Positions 117 to 63,200 of a stretch of DNA of 64,000 nt are shown piece after piece; position 1 is the stretch's first letter, and every line of letters begins with the position of its first letter. The DNA comes from Eledone cirrhosa. Its lineage: Eukaryota. Where the stretch lies: assembly GCA_964016885.1 (NCBI GenBank), contig OZ024740.1:221154001-221218000 (forward strand), written 5' to 3'. Below the pieces are notes generated by a model that ran no database searches, was not told the DNA's origin, and worked only from the letters and a program-made list of their open reading frames with translations. The translations under genes were made by a program, and so were the position numbers.

Positions 117-235
117 GGGTGTGGTAAGATACCAGGTGGACCATAACGCACCAGACTACTCAATACTAGTGGGTTGGTTCGGATTTGGTTGTCGAAACGG
201 CCGGAGCTCAGCCCTCGGGGTCCTGACTCTTTTCC
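117..235. mobile_element. Short (TA)n-embedded cassette of the family also at 2343-2518, 30871-30957, 40592-41237 and 44182-44322; carries the 3' half of a hammerhead (GAAA-CGGC..AGCC-UC-GGGG)
   Basis: Shared head GTGGTAAG.ACCAGGTGGACCATAACGCACCA.A.TACTCAATACT, followed by an inverted segment GTCGAAACGGCCGGAGCTCAGCCCTCGGGG. Confidence 0.6.
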
Positions 236-307
236 TATATCTATATGCATATATATATGTTTATCCCGGGTTCAATCGGGAGAAACCACAGTAAATAACG
301 TACTCAA

Positions 308-359
308 TTTCCTGATGACTTTTCCCGGATGAAACAGCTATAGTAGTTCTGTAGAAGCC
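308..359 (+). ncRNA. Type I hammerhead ribozyme motif (family also at 35292, 35553 and 38555)
   Basis: TTTC-CTGATGA-CTTTTCCCGGAT-GAAA-CAG..CTG-TA-GAAG: intact core, stem III CAG/CTG, GUA cleavage triplet; stem I is short in this copy. Confidence 0.6.
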
Positions 360-375
360 TTTTCTATATTTAATA

Positions 376-924
376 CATGGTGGCTGCCAACACGTTTTCG
401 AGTACGGCCACTACTTTATATCCATCTAGGGGAACCCCTACCAATGCGCTGAACGAGTGTGACTTTTTAGTCCAGCCAGCGACTTGAAAACTCTGGTACA
501 AACACTACACTTGTGACAATTATTGACACATAGTGCTGGGCCCATGGTACCATGTGACGACAAGTGCAGAGAGATCTCCAGATATAAAGCAATGCCTGTG
601 CTGTTAAGCTTTTATAGTGAGCAAAGGCACTGCACAAAGCCAGTCCCACTCTCTTAACCAAGATGATATTTACCAAAAAGAAGAACAATTCAACATCATT
701 GGATACCATCAGGGTTGCAGGTGTTATATCAGAGTTTTCCTTCTCCTAGAATTCTGCCTTGACAAAGGCTAAGAGGTCATCTCTCCCGGTGATTTTGGAT
801 GGCTATTGACTCTTAAGAGCCCCTTTGCCTTTTGACAGGTTTTGTTTTTAGTCCTGCAGGATGTCCAAAGCCACCCTCCTCACCAAGAAACCTTGGTGGG
901 GTTGCCAGTTTAGTCGCCAACGAC
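376..924 (-). mobile_element. Unclassified ~550-600 bp non-coding interspersed repeat, copy 1
   Basis: Near-identical reverse complement of ~54950-55497 and 18322-18725; flanked by (TACA)n/(CA)n. Confidence 0.8.
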
Positions 925-1345
925 ATACATACATACATACATACATACACACACACACACACACACACACACACACACACACACACACACACACACACCA
1001 CACACACACACACACACACACACACATTTATATATATATATATATTTATATATATATATATATATATATATATATATATATATATATATATATATATATA
1101 TATGTGTATATATATATATATATATATATATATATATATATATATATATATATATATGTATATATATATATATATATATATAAATGAAAGGTATAGAAAA
1201 CATTGTAGCAAAAAGCCAACAGTATTCCATAATATATGTGTGTGTGTATTTATATATATATATATATATATATATATATATATATATATATATATATATA
1301 TATATATAAATACACACACACACACATATATATATAAATATATAT
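925..1345. repeat. Compound microsatellite (TACA)n/(CA)n/(TA)n
   Basis: Directly visible. Confidence 0.95.
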
Positions 1346-58620: not shown

Positions 58621-58804
58621 GATATTTACTTATTGTTCCACAATGCTTCAAGCAAACTTCAATACTCTCATATATATATATATATATATATATATATATA
58701 TATATATATATATATATATATGTGTGTGTGTGTGTGTGTGTGTGTGTGTGTGTGTGTGTGTGTGTGTGTGTGTGTGTGTGTGTGTGTGTGTGTGTGCGTG
58801 TGTG

Positions 58805-59325
58805 TGTCAGGTCTCTCCTGAGTGATACTGGTAACATGTAACCCAGTACATCGTGTCTCATGGTCCGGACGTCGGCGACTAAACCGGCAACTCACCCAGC
58901 TTGCTTGGTCACGAGGGTGATATTTGGACACCCTACGCGATGAAATACAACACTCGCAAAAGGCGGAGGAACTTAGCAGAGTCAACGGCCATTCAAATAG
59001 TACTTTTTTTTTTTTTTTTTTACCTGGGAGTGAAAGGCCTCCAGTTGTTGTCACAACACCTTTCTAAGAGAGGGAGTCTCTGAAAAAAAAACACCTGCGG
59101 CTTCGGAAGGATCCGATGAAGTTGACTAGTTCTCTTTTTCGGGTAGTGTTTTCGATGCTCAGAGAGTGGCATTGGTCGAGTGCAAGGCCTTTCTCCACTT
59201 AAAACACCTTCAAAGCACAGACATTGCTTGTTCAGGATCTGTTACAGGTTCGTGTAGTCTAAAAGTGCACCATTTTCTGTAATCTGATAAGCGATTGCAA
59301 TACTCTTAGCAGAGTTTGCAGCCAT
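58805..59325 (+). mobile_element. Diverged relative of the 54886 repeat (3' part also at 38666-38811 on minus)
   Basis: Shared head GTGATACTGGTAACATGTA..GGCGACTAAACCGGCAAC and shared AAAGCACAG.CATTGCTT and GCAGCCA(T/C)CA end. Confidence 0.6.
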
Positions 59326-59460
59326 CACACACACACACACACATATATAGTATATATATATGTATGTGTGTGTGTGTGTGTGTGTGTGTGTGTGTGTGTG
59401 TGTGTGTGTGTGTGTGTGTATGTGTGTGTGTGTGTGTGTGTGTGTGTGTGTGTGTGTGTG

Positions 59461-59945
59461 TATTGTTATACTTAGGGAGGGTCATGCGGCCAGTAAAAAC
59501 ACACGCACTTGTTGGTTTCACTTCAATTAATTATAAATTTCCAGTTGGTTGATTGGTCCGATAACAGAATGGTTGTTTATATATTGTCAAAGCTCTTTCG
59601 CCACACATTCGGTAACCTCCTCAATGACTGGGTTTTTATTTTGTGTCACTCCTTCGTTCTATCCTACACCATCTTGTTTTTGTGTCTTGTGACAAAATAA
59701 AAATCCAACCATTGAGGAGGTCACATAATGTGTGACGAAACAGCTTTGACAATATTTGACAATATATATAAACAAACATCCGGTTATCGAACCAACCAAC
59801 TCAACCGGAAATTTATAATAAGCTGAAGTGATAAACAAAAGGTGCGTGTGTTTTTATTGGCAGCATGACCCTCCCAAAGTATAACAACATCTGTTTCAAC
59901 ACACGTTTTCAGATAAGAAAACTTGCAAAACAAATTCAAAAACGA
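59461..59945. mobile_element. Older inverted pair of PLE pseudo-LTRs
   Basis: Diverged copies of the 44460-44730 sequence in opposite orientations. Confidence 0.75.
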
Positions 59946-60297
59946 AGATTGTATAGATTGGACTGCCCCCCAGCAACATCATTAAAGACAATAATGCTTC
60001 TTCTCTGAAGATTCTAAGAACATATTCTTTATAATAATATGTATGCATACGCACATATATATATAGACCTGTTATATTGATATCATACCTTAGAGTCTAA
60101 GGCTTAGACGAAACACTGTGTAAGGAGTAAATTTTGTTTATATATGTATTGCATTCTCCTACATTTATTTCTGCTTATATATAAGGAACTGTTTCATTGT
60201 TTTATTCATTATTTGTTTAATATTTTATATATATATATATATATATATATATATATATATATATATATATATATATATATATATATATATATATATA

Positions 60298-63200
60298 TTT
60301 CGTTTCTGAATTTGTTTAGCAGGATTCTTTATCTGAAAACGTGTGTTGAAACCGATATTGTTATACTTTGGGAGGGTCATGTTGCCAATAAGAAACACAC
60401 GCACCAGTTGCTTTAACTTCAATTTATTATAATAAATTTATAAATTTAGGAATTTATAAATTTCCGGTGGTTGGTTGGTTGGTTACACAACCAGATGGTT
60501 GTTTATATATTGTCAAAGTTCTTTCGTCACACATTCTATGACCTCTTCAGTGACTGGGGATTCTTTTCTTTGTTTTTGTGCCTCTCCTCCTACGCCATCT
60601 TGTTTCTGTGTGTGTGTTGTGTGATCAGTCTGCGCATGCGCCACATTCGGGTGTCTGTGTGTGTTTGTATTCGTTTATTTATTTGTTTATTTACATGTTA
60701 CAGGTTGGTTGTTTGTTCTATGTGCGTGTGTGTTTTCATTTTGTCCTTAATTGTAAGTTGTGACGTTGCTGTTCCATTCATGTATTCTATTTAATTTTGG
60801 TTGTAATTCTTTTATGATTATTGCCTCTGTGATTTGTCTAAACATTGCGTCTTTTCTGTGTGTAGATTCTATTTTTATTTCTATGTACTCTAATTTACCC
60901 TTATGTTCTATTTTAGCATGTTGGTAGAGTACAGATGATTCTTTACTATCTTGAAGGTCTCGCCAGTGTTCATTTATCCGTTCCCCTACACTACGAGCTG
61001 TCTCACCTATGTACACTATATTTTTGTCTCTACATTGTCCTTCAGTACATCTTATACTATATACTACATTTCTAGTTTTACAGTTAATATGGGGGCTTAA
61101 TTTACAGGTTATACATTTCTTATCTATACAGGGGGGTCTTTGAAAAGGGTATGTCTTGCTAATAAGTGTTTTTACGGAGGTACCTGGTCTTTCTACTATC
61201 TTAATATTGAGTTTATGTTTATCTAGGGCCCTTCTAAATTTGTAAGCTAATTCACCTCTAGGGGTTGTATCGATGAACATTACACTCTGGTATTTATTGC
61301 TATCATACCATGAGTTTATTCTATTAGCTTTATTCCTAGTTCTTTCTATTTAATTCCATAATTTGCTCCTATACAAGGGGCAGGTCCCATTTGTGTCATT
61401 ATTTACCATTTTTTCCCATTTGGTTCTGGCTCCTCTATACACTCTGATTTTATCACTCTGATTGTAACCGGAGAACTGCATACGGTGGATGAAGTCTTGT
61501 ATGTGTCTCTCTAGTTCTTCGGGGTTTCACATGCGGGACACGCTTCTCATCACCCGTACCAAATCCGCAATCAGTATGTTGATTTTGGTATGGTCCGAAA
61601 CAGCTGAGTTTCGGTGGATCAGATATTTATAAGTCATGGGTTCGGCATAATGGGAATGGAGGATTTGTTTTTTGTTATTAATGGTATCTAACCAGAGCTC
61701 TGTGTCTAGTACAGGTAATCGATGGTTGGGGTGTTTATTTGGGTACTCTAATAATCTGGTGGATGGAGTTAGCTATTTGCTGGATGCTTTCCATTGTGTT
61801 TTTCTCTAATTCCTGACTGTTCTCTAGTGGGGGTGTTTTAACTACGATGTTTATATCAGCAACGTAGCGGGAGTACATTATCAGGGTTAAGGGGGGTCTT
61901 CTAATTGTTCTTTAAGTTTAAGTTTAAGTCTACTGTCCCACTATACCATGAATAAGTTAGCTATGTCGCCTCCAATGCTAACACCAATGGCTGCTCCTTC
62001 TTCTTGGGCATATGTTTTTCCATTAAATTTGAACATATGTTCCTTAAGGGTTAATTTTATGCTGGCCCCCACCGCATGTGCAATCATTTTCTTTAGTTCA
62101 TCGTGGTTTTCGGGTGTCCGTATGGCTCTGGTCTACCCTTTCCATCTATCTGTGTAGGTTTTCTTGGCCATTGAGGTAATGGTAGGTGGTCTGTCTCTTG
62201 CTGGTCTTGTAGGGCACAGGTTGCTAAGGTCATATGTGTCTAGGTAATTATTACTATAGGTAAGTTTAAGTAGGAGTCCCAACTCAACATTGCTCTCACT
62301 GATCATTTATACGCATTTCTCCACAGAAAAATCTACGTCAATAGATGGATACAGGGACACAACATCCATACTGCCTATTATGCAGTTTGTTAGGTCCCGA
62401 GATCGGTTACTCTCGCCTATTCTGCTGAGGAGGTCCTCCGTGCTGTCACATATATCTGGGGACATTTCAATGATCGGGCGTATGATCAGGGAGAGGAAGT
62501 AGGACAGTCTGTAGTTACTAGCAATGTTAGCTCCACAGACTGGCCGTGTTGGTGGTCCCGTGACAGGGTTACTGCCCGTTTTATGGTCTTTTCGAAGCCC
62601 ATACAACGCTGGCACGTCATTGTTCCAGGCCTGGAAGCTGTTGGCAGTCCTTTTGTTGGGCTGCATTATATTCGTCCACATCACCATATGGGCATTGAGG
62701 GCTTTTTATCTATCCTCATGCCCTTGTGGTGTTACTTCTCTTGTGTTAGTGATGTGGGGTTGCATTGCCTGGATGTAGTTTGGCAGACTGTCAACCGACA
62801 TTCTGCCAGACTTGTCTGTTGGAAAGCATGCTATCTCTCCATTACGCGAGCGCTGCATGAGCTTACGCAAGCCATTTGCAGATTTTTCTCCCAGTTGCTG
62901 GGCCTCCATTCTATTATGCTTCTTGCTATACTGTTCTATAATATTTCTAAGTTTAGATCTAGCTATAATGAATTGTGCTTCTGTTTGTTCATCGACCTGC
63001 GACGGCAATTGCGTGCGTTTGTTAAAAGGTAAAGTCGTGGCGTGAACTCGTCGTAGGTCGAACGACTTATCGGAGGGATTATAAAAAGTAGAGTTCCAGG
63101 CTGCTGCTTTATGTGTACTAGTGCTATTGTTATTGTTAGTTGTGTTGTTTCTATTTCTATTTCCACCAACATCCTCATGGTTGTTTCTATGTCTCTCATT

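Follow-up and report, generated by a model that had tools for sequence, protein, structure and literature searches.

Whether the many hammerhead ribozyme motifs in a 64,000-nucleotide stretch of Eledone cirrhosa DNA (contig OZ024740.1, positions 221,154,001 to 221,218,000; hereafter, the window) are genuine, and from which elements they derive, is the question raised by this locus. A sequence-only reading had proposed about 30 motifs from many families, originating from Penelope-like elements (PLEs). The window has 36% GC and contains many (TA)n, (CA)n and (TATG)n tracts. A scan with a type-I descriptor (a stem I with a minimum of 3 bp, CUGANGA, stem II, GAAA, a hairpin or self-complementary stem III, UH and the second strand of stem I) revealed 16 hammerheads with an exact core (last column of the table), as compared to means of 0.16, 0.19 and 0.18 and a maximum of 3 when the sequence was dinucleotide-shuffled 200 times for each of three block sizes; the motif density of the window is thus clearly distinct from that of shuffled controls (16 versus 0.16-0.19). 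The complemented sequence gave no exact-core match with the same descriptor.

When one core mismatch was allowed, 22 matches were observed versus 2.5-2.9 in the shuffles (maximum 9), and six one-mismatch motifs, all of them family-linked, were counted; a one-mismatch match at 5029, inside a Helitron-like frame, was dropped as a probable chance match. With two core mismatches, the window yielded 3 matches versus 3.15 in the shuffles, which is chance level, and these were left uncounted. Together with six motifs found by eye, the total amounts to about 28 motifs, and about 11 half-remnants of hammerheads were seen in addition by eye. Two further candidates were rejected. At 19459-19485, an exact core and GAAA surround a short stem II, but stems I and III are missing; this isolated core sits in an older repeat related to 20625-20902. 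At 40452, the parts are present in an order that does not fold.

That the motifs are chance matches in AT-rich, repetitive DNA can practically be dismissed. Such a view would draw on the two-mismatch matches being at chance level and on the Rfam models, none of which matched the window at its gathering score; the hammerhead family was absent among the best 150 of 373 Rfam E-value matches and from two narrow E-value scans. It is contradicted by 16 observed motifs against a maximum of 3 in 600 shuffles, and by a core that is kept while the stem sequences differ between families. The swarm of hammerhead motifs is real. As a side observation, the list of Rfam E-value matches was filled by microsatellites matching microRNA models.

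The motifs are unevenly spread, with 12 of the 16 exact cores lying within 28-47 kb of the window, and the local density corresponds to 250 exact cores per Mb. A (TA)8+ tract was present within 400 bases of 15 of the 16 exact cores versus 36% of background positions, with a median distance of 155 bases for the cores and 889 bases for the background (P = 0.002), which bears out the proposed embedding in TA repeats.

Masked blastn self-comparison and reading by eye sorted 33 insertions into 13 groups: P with six, C with five, I with four, A, B and D with three each, E and J with two each, and F, G, H, K and L with one each (two J copies and one I copy were assigned by eye only). Exact cores occurred in nine groups, variant or damaged cores in C, D and K, and none was detected in L; about 12 families bear hammerheads, in line with the many families initially suggested. 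Sixteen of the 19 sites listed as intact in the sequence-only reading passed the descriptor, at most 2 bases from where they had been placed. The other three were not intact: at 30602, the core is exact and the base of stem II is decayed, and at 40685 and 41129 the core reads UUGAGAA instead of CUGANGA. The latter two are the arms of one insertion of family C, 98% identical over 225 bases, and the 40685 arm, when read by eye, has a GUC site and 5-bp stems I and III but an imperfect stem II base. A U3-A8 core variant of this kind is also described, for Schistosoma, in extracts of PMC4209133. Covaried-core scans of the window (U3-A8, G3-C8 and A3-U8) gave no match each.

Among the 16 exact motifs, stem III was a perfect palindrome in six (CUAG twice, CAUG, UAUAUA, UGCGCA and CUAAUUAG), a near-palindrome in six and an ordinary hairpin in four, so that the tiny palindromic stems III initially described hold for part of the set. 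CAAUUG was present at the degenerate 57099 site; CGAUCG was not at 35733, which reads CGAUUG. For the stem III dimer duplex, free energies of -3.2 to -10.5 kcal/mol were predicted for the six palindromes, as opposed to +1.4 kcal/mol in three of the four intact family P copies and -1.7 kcal/mol in the fourth. The suggested cleavage as dimers through a palindromic stem III would suit the six perfect palindromes and fits poorly for P, and likewise for A and E with their hairpins.

The base of stem II was mismatched in 10 of the 16 motifs (U.U three times, C.A three times, A.A twice, C.U and A.C once each). Watson-Crick closure was present in the remaining six, as G-C once, as A-U once and, in four P copies, as G-C after an extra base. 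The U.U mismatch may be a family trait rather than decay, because A, B and K, which are unrelated families, all have it; the same mismatch at the helix II base is reported for axolotl HHR_Amex2 (extract of PMC7229834). No paper on stem II base mismatches was found in a literature search. Several families have stem II regions of 36-61 bases. The ribozyme fold was predicted to lie within 2.5 kcal/mol of the local minimum in 11 of the 16 motifs, and whole-cassette fold predictions gave a core fully paired with the opposite arm in the A, I and K foldbacks.

Compared with the minimal Penelope hammerheads in the available parts of PMC4209133, the motifs share the type-I topology, a helix III that is short or palindromic, and the occurrence of many heterogeneous families in one genome. 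Also common to both are an additional base that separates positions 9 and 10.1 (here in family P) and a prevalence of solo copies or opposite-strand pairs from truncated copies. They differ in that G10.1-C11.1 is highly conserved there, whereas the corresponding pair is mismatched in 10 of 16 motifs here, and in the local density and the long stem II regions of the window.

A direct link to a PLE was obtained for family P. In its copy at 60298-63470, a decayed reverse transcriptase (RT) with DKSG and core motifs leads via a CX4CxxC linker to a GIY-YIG domain, and the hammerhead lies about 200 bases downstream of the stop of this frame, within a 3' untranslated region of 450 bases. The GIY-YIG domain matched Pfam PF01541 with 25.3 bits (cut-off, 22.6) in the frame 60750-61349, which also contains CX4CxxC, with its cysteines retained in homologues. 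The decayed frame as a whole spans 63470-60750, and its alignment with the homologue P0012 covers residues 258-1043. Of 2,089 homologues, the best was an Octopus bimaculoides protein with 53% identity, which together with the repeat landscape would point to an octopus, and all of the best 150 homologues listed map to the two P copies; a word-index protein search with the P endonuclease frame gave no match. In the extract of PMC8557442, a CX2-5CxxC linker marks Neptune and Nematis elements and goes with (TA)n targeting; as judged from its CX4CxxC linker and GIY-YIG domain, family P is a Neptune/Nematis-type, endonuclease-bearing (EN+) PLE.

The insertion anatomy of P is shared by further families. 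Main arms of family P finish in a 57-base tail, and its inverted arms stop just short of that tail. In all six families examined (P, A, C, I, E and K), the main arm goes on with TA at the point where the inverted arm stops, and a tail of 57-93 bases is present at one end only, in (TA)n. An inverted arm with a single-end tail is the published PLE insertion structure (extract of PMC8557442), and for truncated elements, extracts of PMC4209133 describe opposite-strand hammerhead pairs at distances of 100-700 bases. Shared with the elements of PMC8557442, as far as its extract describes them, are the C-terminal GIY-YIG, the CX2-5CxxC linker, (TA)n targets, 5' truncation, an inverted 5' copy and a one-end tail; the tails are longer here, with 57-93 bases versus 30-40 bases there.

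Tc1/mariner miniature inverted-repeat transposable elements (MITEs) have long inverted repeats flanked by TA. Many cassettes of the window are likewise long inverted repeats with TA flanks, and could be taken for MITE-like DNA transposons or palindromic expansions with hammerheads as passengers. This is very improbable, given that the arms are unequal with a tail at one end only, that arm length ranges from a few bases to hundreds inside one family, and that family P shows the same anatomy round an RT-GIY-YIG frame.

The motifs are most likely type-I hammerheads of the 3' pseudo-long terminal repeats (pseudo-LTRs) of EN-bearing PLEs, or of elements without an open reading frame (ORF) that use the same machinery. 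Several points weigh against this reading. Linkage to an ORF was directly shown for 1 of 12 families (P), with a suggestive abutment at B'. Penelope ORF remnants were found only beside P and B' when the 150 listed homologues were used in tblastn and 123 frames were searched with Pfam; within the window, families A, C, D, E, F, G, H, I, J and K have no Penelope ORF remnant alongside. Families F, G and H, moreover, have one copy each in the window. The PLE origin that had been suggested is supported for P by its ORF and for six families, P included, by their insertion structure, while ORF linkage stays with one family. Families P and D are high-copy in sequencing reads (see below), so that the cassettes are neither uniformly single-copy nor unlinked to any PLE. 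At B', the RT fragment 29135-29700 (-) has 76% DNA identity to 62709-62885, is split by a short interspersed element (SINE) at 29213-29426 and lies on the same strand as the adjoining cassette; fragment and cassette may reflect an internal deletion or two adjacent insertions.

In mechanistic terms, most copies would stop early, and the part always written would be the 100-600-base, ribozyme-holding end. A second priming from the other strand, at the inner TA of the RNA, would give an inverted arm without a tail, and TA-rich regions would gather the ends of many families over time, from which the swarm would result. We infer the two-priming model by analogy with the anole Poseidon element PAc (extract of PMC11167929), in which the tail is likewise set by two reverse-transcription starts and the target is AT-rich. 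The ORF-less families would use the same machinery as Penelope elements, and most hammerhead copies are probably inert relics by now. In PAc, the hammerhead overlaps the ORF start, whereas that of family P lies about 170 bases upstream of the tail ATG, and the two belong to different clades; as in PAc, the P tail opens with ATG and an open frame. This tail (44409-44480 and other copies) starts just after the ATG, and its frame stays open for about 28 codons up to the TA tract, which is what the start of a next ORF would give. When the peptide of this tail was compared with the N-terminus of P0012, the score was 30; other frames reached up to 34 by chance, and the likeness was not used as evidence.

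As an extension of the PLE reading, several families could be true non-autonomous retrozymes, with tandem or circular RNA that is cut by the hammerhead and re-inserted by the Penelope protein; we consider this possible, yet not the likelier case. Extracts of PMC7229834 and bioRxiv 10.64898/2026.07.22.740005 propose that retrozymes derive from pseudo-LTRs, and describe animal non-LTR retrozymes as ORF-less type-I units of a few hundred bases; unit sizes in the window fit these descriptions. In family B, a 400-base ORF-less unit (11586-11985) is preceded by 88 bases that directly repeat its own tail (11986-12073). The B copy at 36162 runs about 6 bases into a tail-to-head junction, and the template would therefore have been tandem or circular. 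Family E has about 560 ORF-less bases, and B' adjoins an N-terminal RT fragment, as an internal deletion would. On the other hand, copies in the window are solo or foldback, unlike the tandem two-ribozyme arrays of animal non-LTR retrozymes: no cassette contains a same-strand ribozyme pair, all within-cassette pairs being opposite-strand, and B comprises about 1.2 units with one ribozyme. The cassettes thus fall outside the retrozyme definition in the extract of bioRxiv 10.64898/2026.07.22.740005, which asks for at least two consecutive tandem units, each with a hammerhead. Most cassettes are also shorter than the 450-base 3' untranslated region of P, and for these short cassettes plain truncation explains the missing ORF. 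The retrozyme-like derivatives that had been postulated therefore come down to family B, the only one with retrozyme-like anatomy. In B, B' and one more cassette, which is decayed, the octamer ATGCAAAT lies upstream of the ribozyme (11930-11945, 29115-29130 and 57580-57600). Octamers of this kind are small nuclear RNA-type promoter elements, and those of the window could drive transcription of B/B'-type units.

It had further been suggested that the motifs might cleave host pre-mRNA. That they cut pre-mRNA or nascent RNA often enough to matter, with selection shaping their orientation, is very improbable and has no support in the window. In its favour, the minus strand carries 12 of the 16 exact motifs, copies of one family on one strand lie 3-25 kb apart and could pair inside one long transcript, and the hairpin stems III of A and E need no partner. 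The strand bias, however, was not significant (P = 0.08 for 12/16; P = 0.49 for 19 versus 14 of the 33 independent insertions, strands assigned by hand), no host exon was detected in Pfam scans of the window frames, which may miss short exons, and the stem II mismatches in 10/16 motifs and the predicted burial of the cores in the A, I and K foldbacks also weigh against such a role. Published data point in the same direction: minimal Penelope hammerheads cleave poorly, with inactive monomers and weak dimers (extract of PMC4209133), one of nine Xenopus dimers was cleaved (extract of bioRxiv 10.64898/2026.07.22.740005), and in the anole element the ribozyme was dispensable in vitro with no read ends at its site (extract of PMC11167929).

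The tails of families A, C, I, J, E and L revealed a shared hairpin consisting of RYUC, a variable stem of 3-6 bp, a two-base UY bulge and GAGY. A window scan detected it at 11 distinct sites (12 rows with one duplicate) versus 1.9 in shuffles (maximum 8); in the tail of family K, the inner stem has 2 bp only. All 11 sites are inside cassettes and, in families with a ribozyme, share its sense strand; the hairpin ends 44-64 bases ahead of the microsatellite in 9 of 11; the exceptions are the 38533 copy, which is cut directly after the hairpin, and L, which lies farther from the microsatellite. Compensatory changes between families were evident, with the outer pair being A-U or G-C and the first inner pair U-A, A-U or C-G. 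A protein-coding role of the motif was rejected, as spacers of 9, 14 and 15 bases are mutually out of frame. The hairpin may resemble U-bulge arginine-binding sites such as HIV TAR. A literature search on Penelope tails and stem-loops listed no such hairpin.

We tentatively suggest that ORF-less, sequence-unrelated, SINE-like hammerhead elements might share this hairpin as a signal for a Penelope-type RT-endonuclease, with inner-TA priming just upstream, and with P at the order of 10^5 copies; this composite proposal is rather doubtful. Weighing against it, the motif was defined after these tails had been viewed, which makes the shuffle figure optimistic; the hairpin is not unusually stable (z of -1.6 to +0.8 over 12 tails); the probability of its outer pair is highest in E (0.99) and falls to 0-0.27 in C and L, where rival folds win; and no copy of it was detected in the window for families P, B, D, F, G and H. 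Because it was not found in P, which is the sole ORF-bearing family, the hairpin by itself does not tie the other families to the Penelope protein. Together with the fixed inner TA start, it provides a testable candidate for what Penelope proteins recognise in the RNA. If the proposal were true, octopus genomes would be one to two orders of magnitude denser in hammerheads than the published counts found, and the families would form a natural covariation set for a cis-signal of Penelope retrotransposition and show that stem II base mismatches are tolerated.

The abundance of the families was assessed by mapping the reads of four runs to 44760-50850, with X1 being an assembled whole-genome run, possibly of the source sample. 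In X1, the P ribozyme bin had a summed depth of 1.59 million, about 153,000 times the median of 14 single-copy bins (10.5); the corresponding ratios were 159,000 for the SINE bin, 47,000 for the P ORF bins and about 900 for family D. Summed depth is not copy number, and mapped reads are at least 80% alike, so that cores need not be intact; the abundance of P can be read only as of the order of 10^5, and the window seems no special P hotspot relative to the SINE. The P ribozyme bin is about 3 times as deep as the P ORF bins, as 5' truncation and inverted arms predict. In X4, from another organism, the ratios were 17,000 for the P ribozyme, 124,000 for the SINE, 4,100 for the P ORF and 200 for D; given these lower values, P seems to have expanded more in the lineage of X1 than in the organism of X4. 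Two restriction-site-associated DNA (RAD) runs from other samples showed more than 50,000-fold depth on the P ribozyme bin, which is partly a cut-site effect, and about 0-2 on unique DNA. At 45692, about 19,000 reads of each RAD run depart from the P frame into one common continuation (0.96 agreement), which has no match in the window; they possibly represent an abundant, internally rearranged P derivative. A contig of the organism of X4 that matches 47550-50705 is without about 680 bases (48942-49617) found in the window.

For comparison, the count of minimal motifs in extracts of PMC4209133 is about 9,000 for Xenopus tropicalis, and that of hammerheads in Schistosoma mansoni about 2,000 plus 1,300; the extract of PMC7229834 gives about 5,000 motifs in a mussel and 120,000 in axolotl, the latter corresponding to about 4 motifs per Mb with the genome size of 28.21 Gb given in bioRxiv 10.64898/2026.07.22.740005, versus 250 exact cores per Mb in the window. 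PLEs make up 6.83% of Octopus vulgaris in 190 families, and ribozymes are unmentioned in the available part of that paper (PMC13282606); cephalopods appear in the extract of PMC8557442 for Naiads and not for hammerhead counts. No cephalopod hammerhead census was found in the literature. As read depth suggests, one family alone would be about as abundant as the main SINE, and much of the unknown or simple repeat annotated in such genomes may be Penelope ends. The swarm is a known phenomenon in a new, dense example: hammerheads in Penelope ends, opposite-strand truncated pairs and TA preference are already published and hence expected, and it is the tail hairpin, the recurrent stem II mismatch and the likely scale that are worth following.

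Table. Hammerhead motifs, cassettes and tail hairpins in the window (the last column gives start and strand of exact-core hammerheads).
Feature	Position	Strand	Exact core
Type-I hammerhead, family A, weak stems, on inverted arm of cassette 249-375	308..357	+	308 (+)
Type-I hammerhead, family B, palindromic CUAG stem III, U.U at stem II base	11815..11857	-	11815 (-)
Family B cassette; most retrozyme-like	11586..12073	-	
Type-I hammerhead, family F, 3-bp stem I, near-palindromic stem III	28349..28393	+	28349 (+)
Type-I hammerhead, family G, G-C stem II base, palindromic UAUAUA stem III; most canonical motif	28537..28592	-	28537 (-)
Type-I hammerhead, family B' (68-71% like B), CAUG stem III, weak stem II	28999..29043	-	28999 (-)
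Decayed N-terminal RT fragment of Penelope-like ORF	29135..29700	-	
Hammerhead, family J (grouped by eye), exact core with decayed stem II base; ends approximate	30602..30662	-	
Degenerate minimal hammerhead, family D, U16.1 changed; ends approximate	31924..31962	+	
Family D remnants	about 16880; 31340; 46380	+; -; -	
Family A foldback cassette; hammerheads intact at 35292-35342 (-) and damaged at 35559 (+)	35206..35607	-	35292 (-)
Family I foldback cassette; hammerhead 35733-35824 on inverted (-) arm, long stem II; tail on + arm	35688..36049	+	35733 (-)
Type-I hammerhead, family B, decayed stem II	36426..36468	-	36426 (-)
Type-I hammerhead, family H, long stem II, palindromic CUAAUUAG stem III	38242..38323	-	38242 (-)
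Type-I hammerhead, family A	38557..38603	-	38557 (-)
Family K foldback cassette; two CAGAAGA-core hammerheads (39778-, 39907+)	39716..40062	+	
Family C foldback cassette; UUGAGAA-core, GUC-site hammerhead-like motifs 40685-40778 (-) and 41129-41222 (+)	40582..41234	-	
Family C partial copies	113-248; 2343-2516; 30871-30956; 44182-44322		
Family E cassette; 27-base inverted arm, about 560-base ORF-less main arm	42025..42612	+	
Family E hammerhead, 7-bp hairpin stem III	42278-42362	+	42278 (+)
Second family E tail	10076-10155	-	
Type-I hammerhead, family J, long stem II, palindromic UGCGCA stem III	42757..42827	-	42757 (-)
Family P, 5'-truncated Penelope-like copy; thumb-linker-GIY-YIG frame 44955-45908	44409..46211	-	
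Same P copy, hammerhead of the 3' repeat, which also has a 57-base tail	44622-44664	-	44622 (-)
Same P copy, hammerhead on inverted arm 45928-46211, which has no tail	46017-46059	+	46017 (+)
Family P 3' end with hammerhead 56678-56722 and tail	56457..56868	-	56678 (-)
Family I foldback cassette; CCGAAGA-core hammerhead, CAAUUG stem III, at 57099 (-)	56970..57261	+	
Older family P foldback; degenerate hammerheads 59624 (-) and about 59712 (+)	59461..59946	+	
Family P, long decayed Penelope-like copy; RT, CX4CxxC linker, GIY-YIG; inverted RT piece 63725-64000	60298..63470	-	
Same P copy, hammerhead of the 3' repeat, which also has a tail	60512-60554	-	60512 (-)
Shared tail hairpin, family A	35252..35270; 38515-38533	-; -	
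Shared tail hairpin, family C	44251..44274; 30885-30908; 40641-40664; 2389-2412	+; +; -; -	
Shared tail hairpin, family I	35979..36003	+	
Shared tail hairpin, family J	30531..30551	-	
Shared tail hairpin, family E	42537..42561; 10127-10151	+; -	
Shared tail hairpin, family K	39979..40024	+	
Shared tail hairpin, cassette L (no hammerhead detected)	39593..39617	+	

Two further foldbacks were observed. A 900-base foldback at 43129-44032 (85%) lies between TA tracts (42986-44105) and has Penelope-like anatomy with no hammerhead found; it contains an internal direct repeat of its own end (43002-43066 and 43569-43633). A 614-base foldback (93%) at 58011-58669 has a one-sided tail, and both of its arms contain the 3' half of a hammerhead with a damaged core.

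All long frames of the window that could be named by Pfam and protein searches were from mobile elements: an RT with a zinc-binding tail (52842-54893), a long interspersed element (LINE) fragment near 37300-38080, the Penelope-like frames at 44955-45908 and 60750-63470, and a Helitron-like PIF1 helicase with a weak peptidase match (4578-6707). Of 166 candidate frames of at least 60 residues, a further 114 were searched and gave two sub-threshold Pfam matches and no host gene. The Helitron-like fragment extends over 4137-8596, with the PIF1 helicase and weak ubiquitin-hydrolase matches, and its stretch 7482-7616 recurs inverted at 8462-8596. A 550-base repeat family with 96-97% identity is present at 375-923, 18323-18723 and 54951-55499, with older copies at 58808-59325 and 38667-38809; it is bordered by (TATG)n or (CA)n, and no ORF or hammerhead was found in it. 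A SINE-like repeat of about 190 bases occurs at 5280-5476 and more than 12 other sites, with some copies being 97-99% identical.

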